A stretch of DNA of 20,620 nt from Promethearchaeota archaeon (GCA_016839745.1 JAEOTS010000168.1:1-20620), one strand, 5' to 3'. Shown: positions 5,556-19,369, counted from the stretch's first letter. Translations and numbers: made by a program. Notes: generated from the letters alone by a model not told the origin.

Positions 5556-6407
5556 TTAAGACTTCTTCTTTTTTTTCCAAGTGTAGAATCCTTTTCCAGT
5601 TTTCATACCAAGATCTCCATTTTCTACCATTTGTTTGAGAGCATCTGGTGGTTTATCGCGAGGATCTCCACTTTCTTCGAAATAAGACATTTGTACAGCA
5701 TATACAGTATCTAATCCAATTCCGTCCATTAAGACAAAAGGACCCATTTTCATACCTGTAAAAATCTTCCATGCTGTGTCAATAGTCTCTATGTCAGCGT
5801 ATCCTTTGTCCCACATATTTAAAGCCTCTTTTCTCGCAGAATGCCAGATTCTATTAAACACAAAACCCAGACATTCCTTTTTAACAACGATAGGTTCGCA
5901 TCCTATATTTTTTATCCAATTTTTACCCGTTTCAAATGTTTCGTCACTTGTACCGGTCCCACGCATGATATCTACCATTGGGCGTGTTGGAATAGGTGGA
6001 TAAAAATGTAAATTTAAAACTTTGTCCTTTCTTTTAACTGCAGATTCAATCTTTGACACGGGATAGGAAGAACTATTTGTCCCTATTATTGTATGAACAG
6101 GCGCAAAATTATCTATCTGCGAAAAAACTTCCTTCTTTAACCCTAAATCTTCTGGGACTGCTTCAATTACGAGGTCAACGTCTTCAAGGGCATCTCTCAA
6201 ATCTGAATAATAGGATACCTTCTTAATTGTATCTAATTGGTTTTTTCGTTTTAGTCGTCCCGTGATATATTTTTTAGCGTCTTCGACAATATTTGGGTTA
6301 ATATCATAGACAATTACTATAAAATCGTGTAAAGCTGCTTGAGCAGCTATTTGTTTTCCGGTAAAACCAGCTCCAATAATTCCAACTTTTTTAATTTTAT
6401 TTCTCAT
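5556..6407 (-). CDS. 3-hydroxyacyl-CoA dehydrogenase family protein
   Basis: Rossmann GAGFTG, EAVPEDL.LK, NSSS, LHF, GFVFNR, MGPF.LMDGIGLD and GDLGMKTGKGFY motifs. Confidence 0.88.
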   Translation of the reverse strand: MRNKIKKVGIIGAGFTGKQIAAQAALHDFIVIVYDINPNIVEDAKKYITGRLKRKNQLDTIKKVSYYSDLRDALEDVDLVIEAVPEDLGLKKEVFSQIDNFAPVHTIIGTNSSSYPVSKIESAVKRKDKVLNLHFYPPIPTRPMVDIMRGTGTSDETFETGKNWIKNIGCEPIVVKKECLGFVFNRIWHSARKEALNMWDKGYADIETIDTAWKIFTGMKMGPFVLMDGIGLDTVYAVQMSYFEESGDPRDKPPDALKQMVENGDLGMKTGKGFYTWKKKKKS

Positions 6408-11304: not shown

Positions 11305-11664
11305 TTAATCGTCGATATTAGGAATATTTTTAAGACGACTAAAATCGCCATTAGTAGCTTGAACGAGCAATTCTACTGCGTTATCCCATATAGTTTCGAG
11401 AATTTTTGCGATCTTTTGAAAGTCCTCTTCTTCTTGAAATTTTAGAGTAATAATTTGCGTTTCATTGTCAATATCTATTTCCATAGAGATTTCTTCACTC
11501 AAGCCTCCATACATATTTAACATTGTAATAATTTCTTCAGGTTCAGCAATAATGCCCTCGATGTCTTTTTTAACAGTAATTAAAATAACAAAATTGGACG
11601 CGTCTAACTCTATATCTATCGTTTCCTTCAATATACTTTTTAAATGTGGTAATAATTCTTCCAT
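11305..11664 (-). CDS. Hypothetical acidic protein (119 aa)
   Basis: ATG start with an AGGTGA SD-like site upstream; 10 bp from the CocE gene; protein-like composition. Confidence 0.7.
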   Translation of the reverse strand: MEELLPHLKSILKETIDIELDASNFVILITVKKDIEGIIAEPEEIITMLNMYGGLSEEISMEIDIDNETQIITLKFQEEEDFQKIAKILETIWDNAVELLVQATNGDFSRLKNIPNIDD

Positions 11665-11670
11665 TTTTAA

Positions 11671-11676
11671 TCACCT
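11671..11676 (-). promoter_or_regulatory. Archaeal Shine-Dalgarno-like site (AGGTGA) overlapping the CocE stop codon
   Basis: tcacct on the + strand, 6 nt from the ATG at 11664; suggests translational coupling. Confidence 0.55.
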
Positions 11677-13504
11677 ATTTATTCTCATTTTTAATAATTG
11701 GAATATCAATATAAGAAGAATGAGTATTATTTCTTGAAATCCTAATTGTTGGTTTTCCCTCAGATGGATATCGTAGAAAGGTATCTTTATCTGCGCCCGC
11801 TATAGCAACTTTAATTCTGTGCCCTTTTTTAATAAGAATCGATGTTGCGTGCAATCCGAACTTAACTTCTGTTATTTCTCCGGGGATAAGAGGAGCAGAA
11901 TCTTCTTTTTTATAACTATGATATGGAATTAAAATCTTGTATGGAGGATCTTCAGACAAGATTTTTCTATGTATCACTCGAAATTCTCCGTCAGTTACGT
12001 AAGTTATCTTCCCATTTTCGTCCACATCCTCAAAGTAAGCAAAAATTGCTCCATCTTCATGTGTTGAAGCAAAATATAGACATATTACTATTTGCCCAGT
12101 TATCTCAGTGTCTTCTTCAAGTGGTTCGCTAGTATAGCATAATAATTTTTCGTCGACTTTAACTCTGTTCTCGTATGTTATTGGAAGCCCTAATAATGCC
12201 CACCATCGATTATTTCTCCCTGTTGTAGCACGAAAATTGATTCTATATGAATCGTCTCCACTAGCACTCTCAGGTTTCTCTCTTGTTAACGAAAAATTTT
12301 CGGAAAAATACCATTTTTGATAATTATGTCCTACGGGAGGCCAAACATTAGATTTTTTCCACTTTTCTTCGACTAATGTGTAATAATATATTACTTTTCC
12401 TTGTATTCCATCGCCAAATATGCATTTATCAAAGAAATTAATCCAAGCATTCACTTTATCTTTAGGCGTCGGAGTAACTGAAGTTCGATTAGGAAAAAAT
12501 TGGTTTGCTGGTAAGCGTGCTCCGTGAGTCCAATCACCTAAAATAGCAATATGGGGATTAGATATATTCATAAACCTATGAATAATAGCGTCTCCATAGC
12601 CAGAATCTAGCCACGAGCACCAAGCTAAAATTGGTAAATTGGATCGTTCGATCTCGTCTTTTCGGTCGAAAATACTGAAATCATCAAACGAGGAACCATC
12701 TAGTATTTGATCGTCCCTAAAATGTTCTTCGATCATATGCTCATAGACATATTGATTAGAACCATGTTCTTCCACTGCTTTGTTCAACATTTTTAAATCT
12801 TTATCTGTTGCTACTGGTTCTACACCTTTTACAACGAGCCAAGCGTCTGGCATTATCTGCCTAAAAACTTTAGGGTTATTCAAATCTAAGTTTTTACCGA
12901 GAAATGACCACAATTGAATAAATGCATGATCAAAACATCCGCCTGGGAATGCTACATCTGTATATGGATCCCAAAATCCGTGTCCGGGTATAACAGCTTT
13001 TATGGCTGGATGAAGGTTCCTCGCAAATAACTCAGCGGTAGTTCCGGTATAGGAAATACCTTTAGAAACAACATTTCCATCGGACCAAGGTTGAGCGATA
13101 ATCCAATTTACAATATCGTAACCATCTTTAACTTCCTCTTCAGAAAAAGGAGTAATTCTTGAACCTGATGACGCTCCAGTCCCTCTAACATCGGTGTAAA
13201 TGAGAGCGTACCCTCTACTTGTTACAACTTCTGGACTCGGAGCGTTTGGCACCATACTATCAAGAATCCATCTAAATGGAATTCGCAATTCCATCGCTCT
13301 CCAATATCTCGTTTGAGTTATTACAGTAGGAATTTTAGCGCTTGGATATAATCCTTTAGGGAGACAAATGGTAGCAGCTATTTTAACGCCATCTCTTACA
13401 GTAATATATGTTGAATCAATGGTATATCCATCTTTATATTTTTTTTCTGGAATTTCTCCCAATTCCTTAAAAGGATTATTTTCTATAGCATTTGGATCTG
13501 TCAT
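11675..13504 (-). CDS. CocE/NonD family serine hydrolase (peptidase S15-like)
   Basis: RDGVKIA…LP, TRY, DVRGTGASSG, WIIAQPWSDG, nucleophile GISYTG, GDWTH and a C-terminal PepX_C-like region (YTSEPLEED.EITG, KKGHRI). Confidence 0.9.
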   Translation of the reverse strand: MTDPNAIENNPFKELGEIPEKKYKDGYTIDSTYITVRDGVKIAATICLPKGLYPSAKIPTVITQTRYWRAMELRIPFRWILDSMVPNAPSPEVVTSRGYALIYTDVRGTGASSGSRITPFSEEEVKDGYDIVNWIIAQPWSDGNVVSKGISYTGTTAELFARNLHPAIKAVIPGHGFWDPYTDVAFPGGCFDHAFIQLWSFLGKNLDLNNPKVFRQIMPDAWLVVKGVEPVATDKDLKMLNKAVEEHGSNQYVYEHMIEEHFRDDQILDGSSFDDFSIFDRKDEIERSNLPILAWCSWLDSGYGDAIIHRFMNISNPHIAILGDWTHGARLPANQFFPNRTSVTPTPKDKVNAWINFFDKCIFGDGIQGKVIYYYTLVEEKWKKSNVWPPVGHNYQKWYFSENFSLTREKPESASGDDSYRINFRATTGRNNRWWALLGLPITYENRVKVDEKLLCYTSEPLEEDTEITGQIVICLYFASTHEDGAIFAYFEDVDENGKITYVTDGEFRVIHRKILSEDPPYKILIPYHSYKKEDSAPLIPGEITEVKFGLHATSILIKKGHRIKVAIAGADKDTFLRYPSEGKPTIRISRNNTHSSYIDIPIIKNENK

Positions 13505-13649: not shown

Positions 13650-14372
13650 TCATTCTAACTCCTTGCCGAAACTCTTGTAGATTAAATATGCGGCAATGGT
13701 GGAAGTTACTGGCATTATCAGAGAAGCAATTGTCCGGTATATCTGGTTGTCAACCAAAGTATGATATAAGAATACTGAAAAAACTACGCCGAGTTCTAGA
13801 AATACGCTAGCTAAAAACATATTAATCCTACGTTTTAGGATAATGCCTTCAAATACTTTTAATAGCTTTAACGAATAATATATTTGGGGTATAAGCAAAA
13901 AGATTAACAAGAATACCCAGCTAAAAATGGAAAAAAACCAATTATAAGTGGGTATCCAGTTTGTACTCGAATCATATTTTATCCCATTGAAGTAAAATCC
14001 AATCAAAAACACATAAGTTGATATGACTCCATAAAATGTAATGATTAGATGAAATTTCCAATAAGCTGATTTCTTATCGAGCTTAACAAGCACCCAACTA
14101 AAAATAACAAAAAAACAATGGCAAAAAACATAGAAATATATTCCAATTATATATGAAATGTATGCGAAAGGAGTATTCAGAACAAAAATTGAAGTGGTAG
14201 CAAAGATATATGTGATAGAATTCAAAATAAAGAGACTACTCAGAGTATAAGTTGACCTATTTTTAGCTCTCTTCAGTAATTTGTAAGCAAAATAAGAGCC
14301 ATAAAATATTGGCCATACTTGAACTATTAATAAAAAGATAATTCTTTGAGTGAGAATGCTTTGAAGTAGCAA
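13650..14372 (-). CDS. Stand-alone 7TM membrane protein, paralogue A (240 aa)
   Basis: Seven hydrophobic segments; colinear without gaps with the next two ORFs. TTG start at the position of the paralogues' ATG. Confidence 0.8.
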   Translation of the reverse strand: MLLQSILTQRIIFLLIVQVWPIFYGSYFAYKLLKRAKNRSTYTLSSLFILNSITYIFATTSIFVLNTPFAYISYIIGIYFYVFCHCFFVIFSWVLVKLDKKSAYWKFHLIITFYGVISTYVFLIGFYFNGIKYDSSTNWIPTYNWFFSIFSWVFLLIFLLIPQIYYSLKLLKVFEGIILKRRINMFLASVFLELGVVFSVFLYHTLVDNQIYRTIASLIMPVTSTIAAYLIYKSFGKELE

Positions 14373-14477
14373 TTTGGCTCATTTTTATTTTTTTAACCTA
14401 TTAGTTAAAAATTAACGCTTTTAATATTTAAATTCTAATTTTAAATAACACTAAGATTTAAAAATTCATCATTACCT

Positions 14478-14489
14478 AAAAGAGAACGA
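14478..14489 (-). terminator. Pyrimidine-rich 3' motif TCGTTCTCTTTT downstream of 7TM B
   Basis: Identical to 13626-13637. Confidence 0.4.
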
Positions 14490-14502
14490 GTAATCATCTT
14501 TT

Positions 14503-15225
14503 TCATTTTAACTCTTTTATAAAACTTTTATAGATTAGAAATGCGGATATAGGTGAGACTAAAATCACTAACGACATGTAGAATGCCCCGAATAATGGAT
14601 TATCAATCAAAACACGATATAAAAAGAATGTAAAAACCACTACGAGTTCTATAAATGTGCAAATTATAAACATTTTAATCCTACGTTTTAGGATGACTCC
14701 TTCAAATATTTTTAAAAGCTTAAATGAAAAATAAATTTGGGGTATAATTAAAAAGGCTACTAAAAAAGCCCAACTGAAAATGAGAAAAAACCAGCTAAAG
14801 CGAGGTACCCAATTTGTAGTCGAATTATATAATATCCCATTGAAGAAAAACCCTATCCAGAAAACATAAGTAGATATGATTCCATAAAGAATAATGGTTA
14901 AAGAAAACTTCCAATTAGGAGATTTCTCGTCAAGCTTTACAAGCACCCAACTAAAAATAATAAAAAAGCAATGATCAAAAAACAAAAAATACACTGCTAA
15001 TATATAAAAGAAGTATGCCATGGGAGTAAATAGAAACAAAATTGAAAGATTAGCAAGGACATCTGTGAGAGCAAATAAAATAAAGAAACTACTCAGGGTA
15101 TATATTGACCTATTTTTAGCTCGCTTAAGCAATTTGTAGGCGAAATAAGAGCAATAAAATATTGGCCAAATTTGAATAATTAATACAAAGATAATTCTTT
15201 GAGTAAAAATGGTTTGAAGTAGCAT
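14503..15225 (-). CDS. Stand-alone 7TM membrane protein, paralogue B (240 aa)
   Basis: Same length and motifs (WPIFY, YKLLKRAK, FSWVLVKLD, IPQIY, KRRI.MF, YKSF.KEL). Confidence 0.82.
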   Translation of the reverse strand: MLLQTIFTQRIIFVLIIQIWPIFYCSYFAYKLLKRAKNRSIYTLSSFFILFALTDVLANLSILFLFTPMAYFFYILAVYFLFFDHCFFIIFSWVLVKLDEKSPNWKFSLTIILYGIISTYVFWIGFFFNGILYNSTTNWVPRFSWFFLIFSWAFLVAFLIIPQIYFSFKLLKIFEGVILKRRIKMFIICTFIELVVVFTFFLYRVLIDNPLFGAFYMSLVILVSPISAFLIYKSFIKELK

Positions 15226-15253
15226 TGTGTCTATTTTGTTTATTTTAAGTATA

Positions 15254-15271
15254 TATACTTTAAAGTTAACT
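15254..15271 (-). promoter_or_regulatory. Conserved upstream element of 7TM paralogue B (TATA-like TTTAAA within palindrome ACTTTAAAGT)
   Basis: tatactttaaagttaact is identical to 16026-16043; TTTAAA lies 34-39 nt upstream of the ATG. Confidence 0.6.
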
Positions 15272-15277
15272 TGTTTT

Positions 15278-16000
15278 TTAATCTAACTCTTTACCGAAAC
15301 TCTTATAGAGTAAATAGGCGGCTATTGTTGAAGTTTCTGGCACTAACATAATGAAGATTAGCCTAAAAATCTCATTATCCACCCAGGTGTTATATAAGAA
15401 TAGTGAAAAAACCACGGAAAGTTCTAGGAATGCGCTAATTATAAACATGTTAATCCTGCGCCTTAGTTTAGCTCCTTCAAATATTTTGTAAAGTTTAAAA
15501 GAATAGTATATTTGTGGTATTAGTAAAAAGATTACTAAAAAAACCCAAGCAAAGATGAGAAATGACAAGCTATAAGTAGGTATCCAAGAGGTACTCGAAT
15601 CATACTTTATCCCTTCGAAGAAAAACCCAATCAATAAAACGAATGTTGAAATGATACCATAAAAGGTAATAATTAAATGAAATTTCCAATAAGGAGATTT
15701 CTCATCAAGTTTTACAAGCACCCAACTAAAAATAATGAAAAAACAATGGCTGAAAACGAAAAAATATATCCCAAATATATAAAAAAAGTATGCGAGGGGC
15801 GTATCAAAAAAGAAAATTGAGAAAGTAGCAAGGAAATATGTGAGAGAAATTAAAAGAAAGAAGCTACTCAGAGTTAAAGTCGATCTACTTTTAGCTCGTT
15901 TAAGTAATTTATAAGCGAAATATGAGCAGTAAAAAATAGGCCAAATTTGAACAAGCAAAATGATGATTATTCTTTGAGTAAGAACTTCTTGGAGTAGCAT
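15278..16000 (-). CDS. Stand-alone 7TM membrane protein, paralogue C (240 aa)
   Basis: Same length and motifs as A and B. Confidence 0.82.
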   Translation of the reverse strand: MLLQEVLTQRIIIILLVQIWPIFYCSYFAYKLLKRAKSRSTLTLSSFFLLISLTYFLATFSIFFFDTPLAYFFYIFGIYFFVFSHCFFIIFSWVLVKLDEKSPYWKFHLIITFYGIISTFVLLIGFFFEGIKYDSSTSWIPTYSLSFLIFAWVFLVIFLLIPQIYYSFKLYKIFEGAKLRRRINMFIISAFLELSVVFSLFLYNTWVDNEIFRLIFIMLVPETSTIAAYLLYKSFGKELD

Positions 16001-16025
16001 TTTGCCTATAATAATTTTAAATATG

Positions 16026-16043
16026 TATACTTTAAAGTTAACT
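16026..16043 (-). promoter_or_regulatory. Conserved upstream element of 7TM paralogue C
   Basis: Identical 18-mer; TTTAAA lies 31-36 nt upstream of the ATG. Confidence 0.6.
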
Positions 16044-16088
16044 CTTTTAGGATTATAAAGAATTTGTTTTTAAAATTAAAGGTATTCC

Positions 16089-16667
16089 TCACTTCGAAAA
16101 TACTTCATATTTTAATATTTCAGCTCGATAATATTTCCAAATTGTATCATAAATCTTTCTTTGAAAACGCTGACTACTCAAAGTTTTAACGGGTGTATTT
16201 GTTATTAAATCATTTATTGATAGAATAATGGTTTCTGTATATACCTTAAATTTTTCACGGATTTTCTCTTCCTCTTTAATACCATCCACATAACCTTTAA
16301 TAATGTCATTTAACGATTCGCTTACGCTACTTACGGTTGGAAGAATAAATTTTTCGTATTTTTTCCGGATTGTAGGCTTTACATAGATTCTTATTACTTG
16401 TTTTCCGTTTACAGTGGTTTTCTTCTTAAAAGCAAATCCTTTTTTACATAAATTATTAATGTAATCATACCCCTTAGTTTGACTTTTATGATCAAATTCT
16501 AAATCAATAATTTTTTTCAGAATTGATTGTTCTTCTCCTTCATGCATCAGAAGAATCATAAATGCTTCAAATTCGCGCATCGATAATTCTCTTAGATTAA
16601 AAGCATTATCTTTTGAACGAGGGATCTTTCCAATCTCAAGTTTTTGGGGAGAGATGTTATCTTCCAT
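16089..16667 (-). CDS. Putative winged helix-turn-helix DNA-binding protein with a C-terminal helical domain
   Basis: LSMREFEAFMILL…KGYDYINNLCKKGFAFKK…NGKQVIRIYV fits the helix / recognition helix-KG / wing pattern of TrmB/MarR-like wHTH domains. ATG at 16667. Confidence 0.6.
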   Translation of the reverse strand: MEDNISPQKLEIGKIPRSKDNAFNLRELSMREFEAFMILLMHEGEEQSILKKIIDLEFDHKSQTKGYDYINNLCKKGFAFKKKTTVNGKQVIRIYVKPTIRKKYEKFILPTVSSVSESLNDIIKGYVDGIKEEEKIREKFKVYTETIILSINDLITNTPVKTLSSQRFQRKIYDTIWKYYRAEILKYEVFSK

Positions 16668-16883
16668 AATCAAATACAATTTTCAGCTTATGCTTTATTA
16701 GTTGTTTTCTAATGTAAAATTAATTAATCACAATTTTTAGTCAAATTGTCAAATCTGTAAAGAATAAAATATAGTGATTATATAAAAATTTATGGTTCTA
16801 ATTTATAGATATTTCCTCGCAATTGTAAAAATTTTCTTTTAAATTAAAGAACTGAGCTCAAAAATTCACGTTTTTAACAACAT

Positions 16884-16943
16884 TTCTCCAAGATTGGGGA
16901 GGTCCTTTAAATACTCTATGAACTTTTCCTCAAAATTGGGGAA
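16884..16943. repeat. Pair of 18-bp imperfect palindromes (consensus TTCYYCAA-RA-TTGGGGAR), 42 bp apart
   Basis: ttctccaagattggggag at 16884-16901 and ttcctcaaaattggggaa at 16926-16943. Confidence 0.6.
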
Positions 16944-17116
16944 TAAAGCTTAAATTTTATATCGACAATAGAATATTAAGATAGTTTGACATTTTAATTA
17001 AGTTCAAGATTACAGATAAAAATCTCGGGTGGGGTTAGGTTATTTTAATCTATTAAAATCGTCAATTCGACTTTTTTAATAGGTAGAGAGAATTTTTTGG
17101 GGGCAAAATTTTACTT

Positions 17117-17689
17117 TCATAAAACCTTAAAGATTACATCGTCCAATTTTCGCTTAGGAACATGCATATCGTTTCCATCTTTCCAGTACTTGTAAGAGCC
17201 CTCAAAAGGTTCCATTTTGGAAGTTTCGTCCGGATAACCTAAACTAATTACATGTTTAATTTCGTATTTTTCAGGAACTTCAAGCAAACTTCTGATTTTG
17301 CTTCCCTTTATATTGGCCATCCAACAACATCCTAACCCAAAACTGACTGCACCAAGCAAAATATTTTCAACAGCAGCTCCTATATCATAATCAAAATAAG
17401 ATTTCTTAATATCCGTGTTTATTATTACAACAATGTACGCTGTTGGTTCTCTTCCACTTTCAGGCGTTCTTTGGTCTTCAGGAAGTGAGGATGCAAATTT
17501 TACTAATGAAAACATTTTTTCTCTCATCGCGGGACTCTCGACAATAATATATTCAACGCTTTGAATATTGCTAGCTGCAGGTGCTATTCGAGCATAATTG
17601 ATTAATTTCTTCAATATTTCGCTCGGAATAGGATCCTGTTTAAATCGTCTGATAGTTCGCCTTTTAAATATTGCTTCTTCAACATCCAT
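17117..17689 (-). CDS. Nitroreductase family (FMN-dependent) protein
   Basis: AI.KRRTIRRF, ARIAPAASNIQ, DIGAAVENILLGA.S.GLGCCW, ISLGYP and KRKLDDVI motifs. Confidence 0.9.
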   Translation of the reverse strand: MDVEEAIFKRRTIRRFKQDPIPSEILKKLINYARIAPAASNIQSVEYIIVESPAMREKMFSLVKFASSLPEDQRTPESGREPTAYIVVIINTDIKKSYFDYDIGAAVENILLGAVSFGLGCCWMANIKGSKIRSLLEVPEKYEIKHVISLGYPDETSKMEPFEGSYKYWKDGNDMHVPKRKLDDVIFKVL

Positions 17690-17700
17690 ATTTATAACCG

Positions 17701-18750
17701 TTAGTTTTTTTCTAATCTTGAATTGATAACAGATTCTGCTATGTCGTAGAAAGCATATTCTACGTTTTTTCCGGTCATAGCGGAGGTTTCTATATATTTA
17801 AGATTTAATTCCTTAGCTAATGCTAAAGCTTCAACTAATTTAACTTTACGCACTTCTGTAAGATCAGTTTTATTGCCGAAGATATATCCAATCATCTTTA
17901 AATGATGCTTTTCCATATTTTTTATTACATCTTCGTACCAATTTTTAATACTGTTAAAGGAGATTCTGTTTGTCAAGTCAAAAATAAGTAAGATAGCCTC
18001 TGAACCTTGGTAAAAGTGTCTTCTCATCGTTTGGAACTTATTTTGGCCAGCGATGTCCCATAATATTGTTTCTATTGCTTTACCATTAGCATGTATGATT
18101 TTTTCAGTAATACTAACTCCTAATGTAGGAACATAGGTTCTTAGAAATGCGTTATCAGTAAACCGTAAAATTGTTGAAGTTTTTCCGACACCTGGATCTC
18201 CTACTACTACGAGTTTGAACCGATAATCAACGATCTTATCGTCCCTTACTATTATTTCGGGAAATTCTTTTGATGGTGGGAAAGAAACTTCTTTTGCGCG
18301 AAAATCGTCTAATAATTGACCTACACTAATTCTAAGTACATTGATCTCCTCAAAAATTCTTTCTCTCTCAACTTTCTGTTCTTCTAATTCTATGATTTTT
18401 CTTGTTGTTTCATCAAAAGGAGCCTTTAAATAGCTCATATATTTATAAAAGACAACATCGTCTGCTTCTTTAAATAAAAAAGTAATCGCTGATCGCGCAA
18501 ATCCTCCTCTTTTGCTCTCGTCTTCTCTTTCTATATACCTTATTAATCCTTTTAGTTTTAACGAAGGGAAGGGAATTATTAATAAAGAACCCGGCACAGA
18601 TCCTTGATCTCCTGTGAGAATAGTTACAGATTTAATAGCAACAAGCATTCTTATCGATTCTGGCAAATCTGAAGGTAACCAATGAATAGGATCTGGTCCT
18701 AATTCATCGTGAATATCGGTGTAAATTACAGCATCAATTAGTTTCTTCAT
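17701..18750 (-). CDS. Rab-like small GTPase with an N-terminal longin/uDENN-like domain
   Basis: G1 GDPGVGKTS, G2 YVPTLG, G3 WDIAGQ, G4 NKTD, G5 ETSA. About 175-aa N-terminal extension with an HDELGP motif and an RGG.R-beta strand. Confidence 0.85.
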   Translation of the reverse strand: MKKLIDAVIYTDIHDELGPDPIHWLPSDLPESIRMLVAIKSVTILTGDQGSVPGSLLIIPFPSLKLKGLIRYIEREDESKRGGFARSAITFLFKEADDVVFYKYMSYLKAPFDETTRKIIELEEQKVERERIFEEINVLRISVGQLLDDFRAKEVSFPPSKEFPEIIVRDDKIVDYRFKLVVVGDPGVGKTSTILRFTDNAFLRTYVPTLGVSITEKIIHANGKAIETILWDIAGQNKFQTMRRHFYQGSEAILLIFDLTNRISFNSIKNWYEDVIKNMEKHHLKMIGYIFGNKTDLTEVRKVKLVEALALAKELNLKYIETSAMTGKNVEYAFYDIAESVINSRLEKN

Positions 18751-18970: not shown

Positions 18971-19369
18971 CTATTCTTCTTTTTCTAACTGCTTTTTCAA
19001 GAATGCTATGTTTTCTTTAATAGTTTCCGTTATTGGTTCATCCTTCAGGTTAAGACGATTTAATATTTGAATAGCATCTTCGATCATTTTCAAAGCTTCA
19101 GGGAATTTGGTACGCTTATAATAGACGCCAGGAATATTAAAAAATTTGAAAGATATTAATTGAATTGCTGTTATGAAAATCCAAATTAAAATGAGAATGG
19201 TTAAGATCCATTCGATTAAAGGTAATGATATACCATGGATCCCAAAAGATTCGAGTATACCATTGATCGCAAAAATAATGAGTACAAAACCAATAAAATA
19301 ACCAAAATAAGCTAGATATTTCTTGAAGTTTGGTCCTGAGTATAATTTGGATTTCGGGCCTTTATACAT
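18971..19369 (-). CDS. Small two-TM membrane protein with a C-terminal TPR-like helical hairpin
   Basis: Two hydrophobic segments, then GVYYKRTKFPEALKMIEDAIQI followed by a capping helix (TIKENIAFLKKQ). Confidence 0.6.
   Translation of the reverse strand: MYKGPKSKLYSGPNFKKYLAYFGYFIGFVLIIFAINGILESFGIHGISLPLIEWILTILILIWIFITAIQLISFKFFNIPGVYYKRTKFPEALKMIEDAIQILNRLNLKDEPITETIKENIAFLKKQLEKEE

Follow-up and report, generated by a model that had tools for sequence, protein, structure and literature searches.

A winged-helix gene and tandem seven-helix membrane proteins in a Lokiarchaeial genome: a putative regulatory cassette beside a separate GTPase unit

Introduction

Is a small GTPase encoded beside an array of seven-transmembrane (7TM) proteins in an Asgard archaeon a partner of that array, or only its neighbor? 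The question arises at positions 13650 to 18750 of a contig from Promethearchaeota archaeon (GCA_016839745.1, JAEOTS010000168.1:1-20620). A Rab/Ras-like GTPase, a nitroreductase-family protein, a winged helix-turn-helix (wHTH) protein and three 7TM proteins, named 7TM-C, 7TM-B and 7TM-A, are encoded there in that transcription order, all on the minus strand, with a 437-bp gap between the nitroreductase and wHTH genes. The whole 20.6-kb contig, which we call the window, belongs to a Loki-type Asgard genome of 3.5 Mb in 192 contigs that is 89% complete. A first-pass annotation of the window had listed these genes with their coordinates and order, all of which agree with the positions of the open reading frames (ORFs). 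It had also proposed that the GTPase docks on the loops of the 7TM proteins, giving a module like that known with G-protein-coupled receptors (GPCRs), with the wHTH protein as regulator or output.

We examined the locus against 400 sampled Asgard genomes, against the 135 genomes of its own taxonomic family (13 genera, source included) and against the 42 genomes of its genus (source included). The reading that we favor, with a probability of roughly 0.55, is that the stretch consists of two independent units that are neighbors only in part of one Lokiarchaeial genus, and that the wHTH protein controls the 7TM array locally. Unit 1 (17117-18750) would be an old, family-wide pair, in which a GTPase that is probably active and Rab-like, with an N-terminal regulatory domain, is followed by the nitroreductase. 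Unit 2 (13650 to ~16945) would be a young, lineage-specific cassette, in which a MarR/PadR-like wHTH gene is followed by one to four tandem 7TM genes, three of them here. By cassette we mean the wHTH gene together with its tandem 7TM genes; 19 cassette loci, all from the one genus, were compared.

The GTPase is paired with a nitroreductase

The GTPase gene (17701-18750, minus strand) encodes 349 amino acids (aa), which form a 175-aa N-terminal domain and a G domain at residues 176-349. The Pfam family Ras (PF00071) matches residues 179-341 with an E-value of 2.2e-47, TIGR00231 matches with an E-value of 2.5e-26, and motifs G1 to G5 are intact (GDPGVGKT, the T in YVPTLG, WDIAGQ, GNKTD and ETSAM). 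The C-terminal tail (...ESVINSRLEKN) has no cysteine, and so none of the prenylation cysteines that are a Rab hallmark, and the protein has no transmembrane (TM) segment. The GTPase therefore lacks a membrane anchor, as had been claimed. When residues 1-175 were searched for a longin fold, Pfam was blank and a PDB profile search returned coiled-coil noise at residues 96-162. The domain may be called longin-like by analogy with a published architecture: in MK-D1, 26 of the 74 small GTPases carry an attached roadblock or longin domain (Tran et al. 2024, PMC10933270). The longin-GTPase ("LG") fusions of Lokiarchaeia described there resemble the window's GTPase, being proteins of ~350 aa with an N-terminal domain and a Rab-like G domain that occur as several paralogs per genome. 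The nitroreductase pairing goes unmentioned in that paper, where the term occurs zero times.

The nitroreductase gene (17117-17689, minus strand; 190 aa) is the second gene of the GTPase unit and starts 11 bp after the GTPase stop; its product matches PF00881 with an E-value of 3.3e-25 and 89.6 bits, compared with a curated cut-off of 23.5. We found the architecture of N-terminal domain plus Ras in 132 of the 135 family genomes, mostly in two to four copies each, with five in the source genome. An ortholog of the window's GTPase lies immediately upstream of a nitroreductase gene in genomes of this genus that have no cassette (G237, G259, G239 and G265) and in genus g12 (G183, G229, G228 and G218), and the two genes are 1.4-2.3 kb apart in g12 genomes G179, G209 and G211. 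No 7TM-family gene was found around the cassette-free pairs in fetched stretches of up to 15 kb. We conclude that the conserved partner of the window's GTPase is the nitroreductase. The tight pair, seen in the window and at loci L057, L058, L060, L061, L050, L052 and L053, occurs across at least two genera, and a second, paralogous GTPase often lies just upstream of it. The fixed partner of this small GTPase is a redox enzyme.

Proximity of the GTPase to the 7TM genes may be due to chance

We compared the position of the GTPase unit across the cassette loci. The unit, or the part of it visible at a contig end, adjoins the cassette in 11 of 19 loci, and three others (G247, G260 and G267) carry 2.5-3.4 kb inserted between the nitroreductase and wHTH genes. 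The remaining five (G268, G244, G246, G241 and G252) are rearranged and have a small TM gene upstream of the wHTH gene. In G244 and G246 only nitroreductase fragments are present. A distance of 12 kb separates the GTPase with the N-terminal domain from the cassette in G268 and G246. For G244 and G241, a different contig carries its best match, and the contig of G252 ends at the small TM gene. These breakpoints and insertions all fall in the gap between the units. The caveat that a 437-bp gap argues against a single operon was correct.

Neighborhoods of other 7TM genes give the same picture. The three other 7TM loci of the source genome have no Ras-family neighbor. Among 40 other 7TM-family loci, a canonical G domain lies within 6 kb in two, compared with ~18-20% expected, and no homolog of the wHTH protein or of the GTPase N-terminal domain was found around any of the 40. 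The source genome has 67 Ras-family matches, and at 67 Ras-family genes per 3.5 Mb a small GTPase beside an interesting gene is expected by chance in Asgard genomes. In simulations, the probability that a random 2.4-kb block has a Ras-family gene within 1.7 kb is P = 0.10, rising to P = 0.35 for one or more of the genome's four 7TM loci. The annotation had itself cautioned that the proximity may be chance, which was right at P about 0.10-0.35.

Under the docking idea, the GTPase would sit on the 7TM cytoplasmic loops in a receptor/small-G-protein module with the wHTH protein as output. Several features favor it: all of the genes from the GTPase to the 7TM array run in one direction, the GTPase unit adjoins most cassettes, the 7TM model is GPCR-like (see below), and the GTPase has no lipid anchor. 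However, the GTPase and nitroreductase stand together as a family-wide pair without any 7TM gene in cassette-free genomes of this genus and of another. They are separated from the cassette or decayed in five loci and set apart by an insertion in three more. Canonical G domains are not enriched near the 40 distant loci, and the proximity in the window is of a kind that chance could produce. Taken together, synteny and co-occurrence set against random expectation gave no conserved GTPase-7TM linkage, an outcome that the annotation had itself listed among those counting against its proposal; the proposed module is not supported, and we regard coupling of the adjacent Rab-like GTPase to the 7TM proteins as very improbable.

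The wHTH gene is tied to the 7TM array

The wHTH gene occupies 16089-16667 on the minus strand. Its ORF is open back to a TTG at 16679 (16089-16679; 192-196 aa), and we take the ATG at 16667 as the true start, giving 192 aa, because of the alignment of orthologs. The structural model predicts a disordered basic N-terminus, a winged helix at residues 30-96 (helices 30-41, 47-57 and 65-75, and a wing at 79-96) and a long helical hairpin at residues 109-191 (helices 109-156 and 166-191). The top Foldseek matches of the model are MarR, PadR, SSV1 F-93 and RTP (E 1e-3 to 1e-2), with Rv3488 and AbfR2 also among the best. The best Pfam match is TrmB at 16.8 bits, under the cut-off of 25.6, and searches of PDB sequences and NCBIfam gave no match. 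The model and Foldseek confirm the winged-helix fold, whereas sequence comparison yields only the sub-threshold TrmB match.

We found the wHTH gene in 19 of the 135 family genomes, all of one genus, and in single copy in the source genome. These genomes are the ones that carry close (>40% identical) relatives of the window's 7TM proteins (18 of the 42 genomes of the genus, source included), plus one, G253, in which a wHTH fragment at a contig end follows the nitroreductase. Both genes are assembled in 17 loci, and in every one of them the wHTH gene lies directly upstream of one to four tandem 7TM genes on the same strand; public NCBI annotation gives the two genes consecutive locus tags in four metagenome-assembled genomes. 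Only 19-90 nt separate the wHTH stop from the first 7TM start, so read-through from one into the other is plausible. The suggestion that the wHTH protein acts as regulator or output is supported by this adjacency and by the match in presence and absence between the wHTH gene and the 7TM subfamily; we consider the regulator link to the 7TM genes supported.

Paired palindromes lie upstream of the wHTH gene

The intergenic region between the two units (16668-17116, minus strand) had been described as repeat-bearing. Repeats are present, though not in tandem: Tandem Repeats Finder was blank, whereas two 18-bp palindromes were found, TTCCCCAA-TT-TTGAGGAA and CTCCCCAA-TC-TTGGAGAA, with centers 42 bp apart. 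The proximal palindrome (16884-16901; CTCCCCAATCTTGGAGAA on the minus strand) is ~233 nt upstream of the wHTH ATG, and the distal one (16926-16943; TTCCCCAATTTTGAGGAA on the minus strand) is ~275 nt upstream of it. The gap matches no Rfam family and has no ORF of at least 20 aa wholly inside it; two short ORFs merely overlap its edges. A scan of the stretch for sigma-70 promoters and terminators was uninformative, the host being an archaeon.

When up to one mismatch to TCCCCAA-NN-TTGGGGA is allowed, the 3.5-Mb genome contains these two palindromes and no other site, and a TATA-like element precedes each by 5-6 nt. In an alignment of seven genomes, the blocks around the palindromes are nearly invariant, more conserved than the flanking proteins, with wHTH proteins there only 57-80% identical. 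Upstream of the wHTH gene, a match with at most three mismatches is present in 18 of 18 loci, two of which have only a single weak match. In 12 of the 18, a pair is spaced 30, 41-42 or 53 bp apart, or roughly three, four or five helical turns; of the others, four have a single site, and in two the paired sites are over 200 bp from each other. The motif is also kept in loci that have lost the GTPase unit (L009, L016 and L020). From these sequence features, we suggest that the palindromes are candidate operators for a dimeric wHTH protein.

A separate C-rich block (CCTAACCCCACCC.AGATTTT, 17021-17040), ~75-95 nt downstream of the nitroreductase stop, is also nearly invariant in the seven genomes. 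Possible roles are in termination, in transcript processing or within a small RNA.

The array members carry promoter-like sequences of their own. Conserved TATA-type elements stand 35-45 nt upstream of each 7TM start. Those of 7TM-B (15242-15276, minus strand; AGTTAACTTTAAAGTATA...) and 7TM-C (16014-16048, minus strand) form a 35-nt direct repeat, D11, with 89% identity, and related elements lie upstream of orthologous copies. Their position suggests a promoter role.

The 7TM proteins are predicted to have a GPCR-like fold

The array comprises 7TM-C (15278-16000), 7TM-B (14503-15225) and 7TM-A (13650-14372), its first, second and third and last copies, all on the minus strand and each of 240 aa. 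The three are 64-73% identical among themselves (7TM-A and 7TM-C 73%, 7TM-B and 7TM-C 66%). Hydropathy maps give seven hydrophobic segments, with basic clusters in the loops at 31-40, 97-106 and 169-184 and in the C-terminal tail, which by the positive-inside rule alone would place the N-terminus outside and the C-terminus inside. 7TM-A begins with TTG (14370-14372), as do apparently most genes of the window's 7TM subfamily (L009, L010, L013-L020, L022 and L025); TTG starts may keep 7TM translation low.

An AlphaFold2 model built from 33 homologs (pLDDT 88.5, pTM 0.86) shows seven helices, and its TM4-TM5 loop, extracellular loop 2 (ECL2), forms a short hairpin. We compared this model exhaustively with 48,161 PDB representatives using VIA-align. 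All of the top 50 matches are GPCR-fold proteins (Z 15.2-18.0), and the best five superpose with a root-mean-square deviation of 3.3-3.8 over 216-227 of 240 residues. MAS1, CD97, GPR6, GPR3 and ADGRL3 are matched at Z 17-18; Smoothened and LYCHOS are also among the matches, and identities are 6-13%. The top matches listed by Foldseek are also GPCRs but weak (E ~4e-3, TM-score 0.45-0.66). Rhodopsin, PAQR and transporter folds are missing from the top 50. The proteins have neither a His-rich motif nor the retinal-type lysine in the middle of TM7; the sole lysine near TM7, K233, is at its cytoplasmic end in a column that is not invariant. Rhodopsin-, PAQR- or transporter-type readings of the 7TM proteins are therefore less likely. 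With a confident AlphaFold2 model, we consider the 7TM proteins to be stand-alone proteins with a predicted GPCR-like fold.

Likeness to eukaryotic GPCRs (class A, adhesion and Frizzled-type) would extend to the seven helices, the N-out/C-in orientation, the modeled helix packing, the short ECL2 hairpin, the conserved cytoplasmic side and growth by tandem duplication. In contrast to GPCRs, the 7TM proteins have no visible DRY, NPxxY or CWxP-type motif, match no Pfam GPCR family and have minimal loops and tails. Homology and convergence both fit these data, and gene neighborhoods give no evidence that the 7TM proteins couple to any G protein.

We found no Pfam family for the 7TM copies (E up to 0.1 for three copies, and nothing relevant at E up to 10 for 33 members), and NCBIfam, PHROGs and PADLOC likewise had no match. 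A profile search over 1.84 billion representatives yielded ~350 family clusters, essentially all of 230-250 aa. Fused forms longer than 467 aa were looked for separately and none turned up, which is weak evidence. From these lengths we conclude that the proteins lack an output domain, as the annotation had stated. HisKA_7TM and 7TMR-DISM are likewise prokaryotic seven-helix putative sensor domains; unlike the 7TM proteins, they are fused to kinase or cyclase outputs. Kinship with HisKA_7TM (PF16927), which a nearby protein-language-model cluster had raised, was rejected, as hmmscan and a whole-genome search were blank; hhalign against 13 Asgard HisKA_7TM domains gave a probability of 0.6%. A viral or defense origin was also rejected, with no PHROGs or PADLOC match for the wHTH, 7TM or small TM proteins.

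Conservation is uneven across the membrane. Among 109 close homologs, positions on the cytoplasmic side vary less than those on the outer side (1.05 versus 1.29 bits of mean column entropy, p = 0.012), so the assertion that the cytoplasmic loops are conserved was well founded. Conservation is strongest in intracellular loops 1 and 3 (ICL1 and ICL3), in the C-terminal tail and in the inner half of both TM1 and TM5, and weakest in the outer half of TM7.

The 7TM family is present in 126 of the 400 sampled Asgard genomes, 123 of which are among the 134 other genomes of the source's own family. The source genome has six copies at four loci: three on C151 and the others on C52, C27 and C161. In a tree of copies, 7TM-A, 7TM-B and 7TM-C each have orthologs in close relatives: copy 2 of G234 for 7TM-A, and copy 2 of G236 and a dispersed G234 copy for 7TM-B. 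Lineage-specific duplications also appear, with four copies in G249 and two in G254. The copies follow a birth-and-death pattern that always unfolds downstream of the wHTH gene. No wHTH match lies near the dispersed copies on C52 and on contig 31 of G234, and the genes flanking the C52 copy are unrelated.

In a third conserved context, 7TM genes stand beside genes for a GNAT-like protein (~250-370 aa), a protein resembling ThiF/E1 and a protein of 400-415 aa, and no signaling protein is among the three (G000:C27:2080-5366, which is L005 and L026, and L067-L069, L072, L080, L083 and L089).

Local control of the 7TM array and its alternatives

In the model that we favor, the wHTH protein would dimerize through its predicted C-terminal helical hairpin and bind the phased pair of 18-bp palindromes that precedes its gene. 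It would thereby set its own transcription and, by read-through, that of the 7TM array, each member of which would also have its own TATA-type promoter. The 7TM proteins lie in the membrane; their cytoplasmic face is conserved, their outer half varies more, and copies are gained and lost in tandem as in receptor-type families. They may act as receptors. The GTPase would have no part in the cassette. Such an arrangement resembles MarR/PadR-type local regulators (PadR, LmrR and MarR), which likewise combine a winged helix with C-terminal dimerizing helices, as modeled here, have palindromes upstream of their own gene and lie beside membrane-protein genes that they presumably control. The wHTH protein differs from them in having no family-level sequence match and in sites that are 230-275 nt upstream.

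Several points weigh against this model. All of its support comes from comparative genomics and predicted structures. The palindromes are 230-275 nt upstream of the wHTH gene and were not found at the 7TM promoters, and direct control of the 7TM genes therefore stays putative. The conserved intergenic blocks could instead belong to an unrecognized small RNA. Only 33 sequences went into the model that predicts the GPCR-like fold, and its Foldseek scores are weak (E ~4e-3); the 7TM proteins could be transporters or immunity proteins rather than receptors. Finally, the strict adjacency of the wHTH and 7TM genes could partly be inheritance, because the cassette genomes are close relatives in which the whole neighborhood, the S15 peptidase and others included, is syntenic.

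Taken to its end, this last point would make the wHTH and 7TM genes functionally unrelated, neighbors by inheritance in a young clade, with the 7TM proteins serving as transporters, immunity proteins or structural membrane proteins. Confinement of the cassette to one sub-clade fits that explanation, as do the missing palindromes at 7TM promoters and the dispersed 7TM copies with no wHTH match nearby. However, adjacency of the two genes has outlasted the rearrangements that removed or moved other neighbors (the Type II loci), changes in 7TM copy number always occur downstream of the wHTH gene, and in 135 genomes the wHTH gene was never found without the 7TM subfamily. We therefore give this explanation little credence.

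A weaker alternative to local transcriptional control is that the 7TM proteins are sensors whose cytoplasmic face holds or releases the soluble wHTH protein, which would then act on the palindromic operators. Anabaena sensory rhodopsin, a stand-alone 7TM protein, is encoded beside a small soluble DNA-binding transducer, ASRT. The cassette may be analogous in that a stand-alone 7TM protein is encoded beside a small soluble DNA-binding protein that could carry the output. It differs in that the 7TM proteins lack the mid-TM7 lysine for retinal and that the putative partner is a winged helix and does not have the ASRT fold. The idea accounts for the strictly shared presence, absence and adjacency of the wHTH and 7TM genes, for the missing output domain and for ICL1, ICL3 and the C-terminal tail being the most conserved parts of the 7TM proteins; moreover, an unrelated context also sets a small nucleic-acid-binding protein beside a 7TM gene (see below). 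On the other hand, MarR/PadR-type proteins usually sense ligands themselves, and simple local regulation explains the adjacency equally well. We thus rank a sensor-transducer pair below local control of the 7TM array by the wHTH protein and hold it to be tentative and on balance unlikely.

Other 7TM paralogs neighbor a pseudoGTPase-like protein

When genes around distant members of the 7TM family were clustered, the oldest 7TM paralogs stood in a different, conserved and co-directional context, which includes the C161 locus of the source genome: a protein of ~199 aa comes first, followed by a zinc ribbon of 64 aa, by a single 7TM gene or two, and by a 115-aa protein with a helix-hairpin-helix (HhH) and a zinc ribbon, the last matching HHH_5 at E = 8.6e-14. 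At C161 (G000:C161:5679-8066, which is L006:331-2718) the 7TM gene has a 198-aa protein upstream (5679-6275) and a 118-aa HhH-zinc-ribbon protein downstream.

The 199-aa family has no Pfam match, and PDB and Pfam searches gave one weak match to CENP-M and Plexin at noise level. We aligned its profile (36 sequences) with that of 31 G domains of the source genome, and hhalign returned a probability of 89.6% (P = 1.9e-6) over 157 columns, full length and in register, compared with P = 0.03-0.8 for controls. Motifs G1, G3, G4 and G5 are degenerate. Given the alignment and the degenerate motifs, the family looks like a Ras-like pseudoGTPase, and such a protein is unlikely to be a switch.

This family occurs in 119 of the 135 genomes and in all 13 genera, in single copy in nearly every genome. 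In about 45-50 genomes of g1, g12, g3 and g4, as judged by comparing coordinates by hand, its gene precedes a 7TM gene on the same strand by no more than approximately 1.5 kb, and two g2 loci add a fifth genus. At those g2 loci (L137 and L138), the pseudoGTPase-like protein is fused to the 64-aa zinc ribbon (326 aa) directly upstream of the 7TM gene and of a 248-251-aa HhH protein. Elsewhere a gene on the opposite strand separates the two (g6, g8, g10, g13 and g3) or they are 8-11 kb apart (two g11 genomes), and at sampled g5 and g7 loci and one g13 locus the fetched stretch contained no 7TM gene. Genes flanking the 199-aa gene are syntenic too, and we therefore treat this neighborhood as a lead and not as a demonstration.

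The 7TM family might work with this pseudoGTPase and its zinc ribbon, perhaps in trans for the window's copies, leaving the wHTH protein to control only expression. The profile match to G domains, the broad distribution, the recurrent position upstream of 7TM genes and the fusion in one genus speak for such a partnership. Yet the fold was recognized through sequence profiles alone, Pfam and PDB being essentially blank; four degenerate G motifs make a switch unlikely; the syntenic flanks and the intervening genes or distances in several genera loosen the association; and nothing ties the pseudoGTPase to the window's 7TM subfamily. We consider it improbable.

A broader proposal joins both contexts. 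The stand-alone GPCR-fold proteins would form a genuine class of archaeal receptors, and their cytoplasmic face would engage small soluble partners from adjacent genes, namely the wHTH protein in the young cassette, and the pseudoGTPase with its zinc ribbon and the HhH/zinc-ribbon DNA binder in the ancestral context. We think this doubtful. If true, the closest relatives of eukaryotes would have a prokaryotic 7TM receptor whose partner has a G-protein fold, which would bear on the origin of GPCR signaling; a functional pseudoGTPase-7TM neighborhood would be the first genomic hint of a 7TM/G-fold pairing outside eukaryotes.

Relation to the origin of GPCRs

The origin of GPCRs is still open, and the 7TM proteins described here, which are not rhodopsins and have a predicted GPCR-like fold, occur in 123 of the 134 genomes compared from a single Lokiarchaeial family. 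A July 2026 review (PMC13466386) traces GPCRs, only tentatively, to microbial rhodopsins; in the passages searched, Asgard archaea figure there solely as the host lineage. A bioRxiv preprint of October 2026 (10.64898/2026.10.28.762692) lists a few structural clusters of GPCR/7TM proteins that span both Asgard archaea and eukaryotes, without context. As far as the searched literature shows, Asgard GPCR-like 7TM proteins have thus been flagged in lists, and the cassette, its candidate operators and the pseudoGTPase neighborhood are undescribed. The window offers a compact testable system, with one regulator, two candidate operator sites and three receptor-like genes.

Neighboring genes

Upstream of the GTPase unit, positions 18971-19369 encode a 132-aa protein with two TM segments and a weak match to SLATT_4 (E 0.025), and its gene contains a 27-nt tandem repeat (19218-19284, 2.5 copies). 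In the rearranged relatives, this two-TM gene and a different Ras-like GTPase on the opposite strand stand in for the GTPase-nitroreductase pair upstream of the wHTH gene. Downstream of the 7TM array, positions 11305-13504 encode an S15-family X-Pro dipeptidyl peptidase and a 119-aa acidic protein, which are always together in cassette-bearing genomes. Both are absent from three cassette-free loci of the genus (G232, G238 and G266), where other neighbors are kept.

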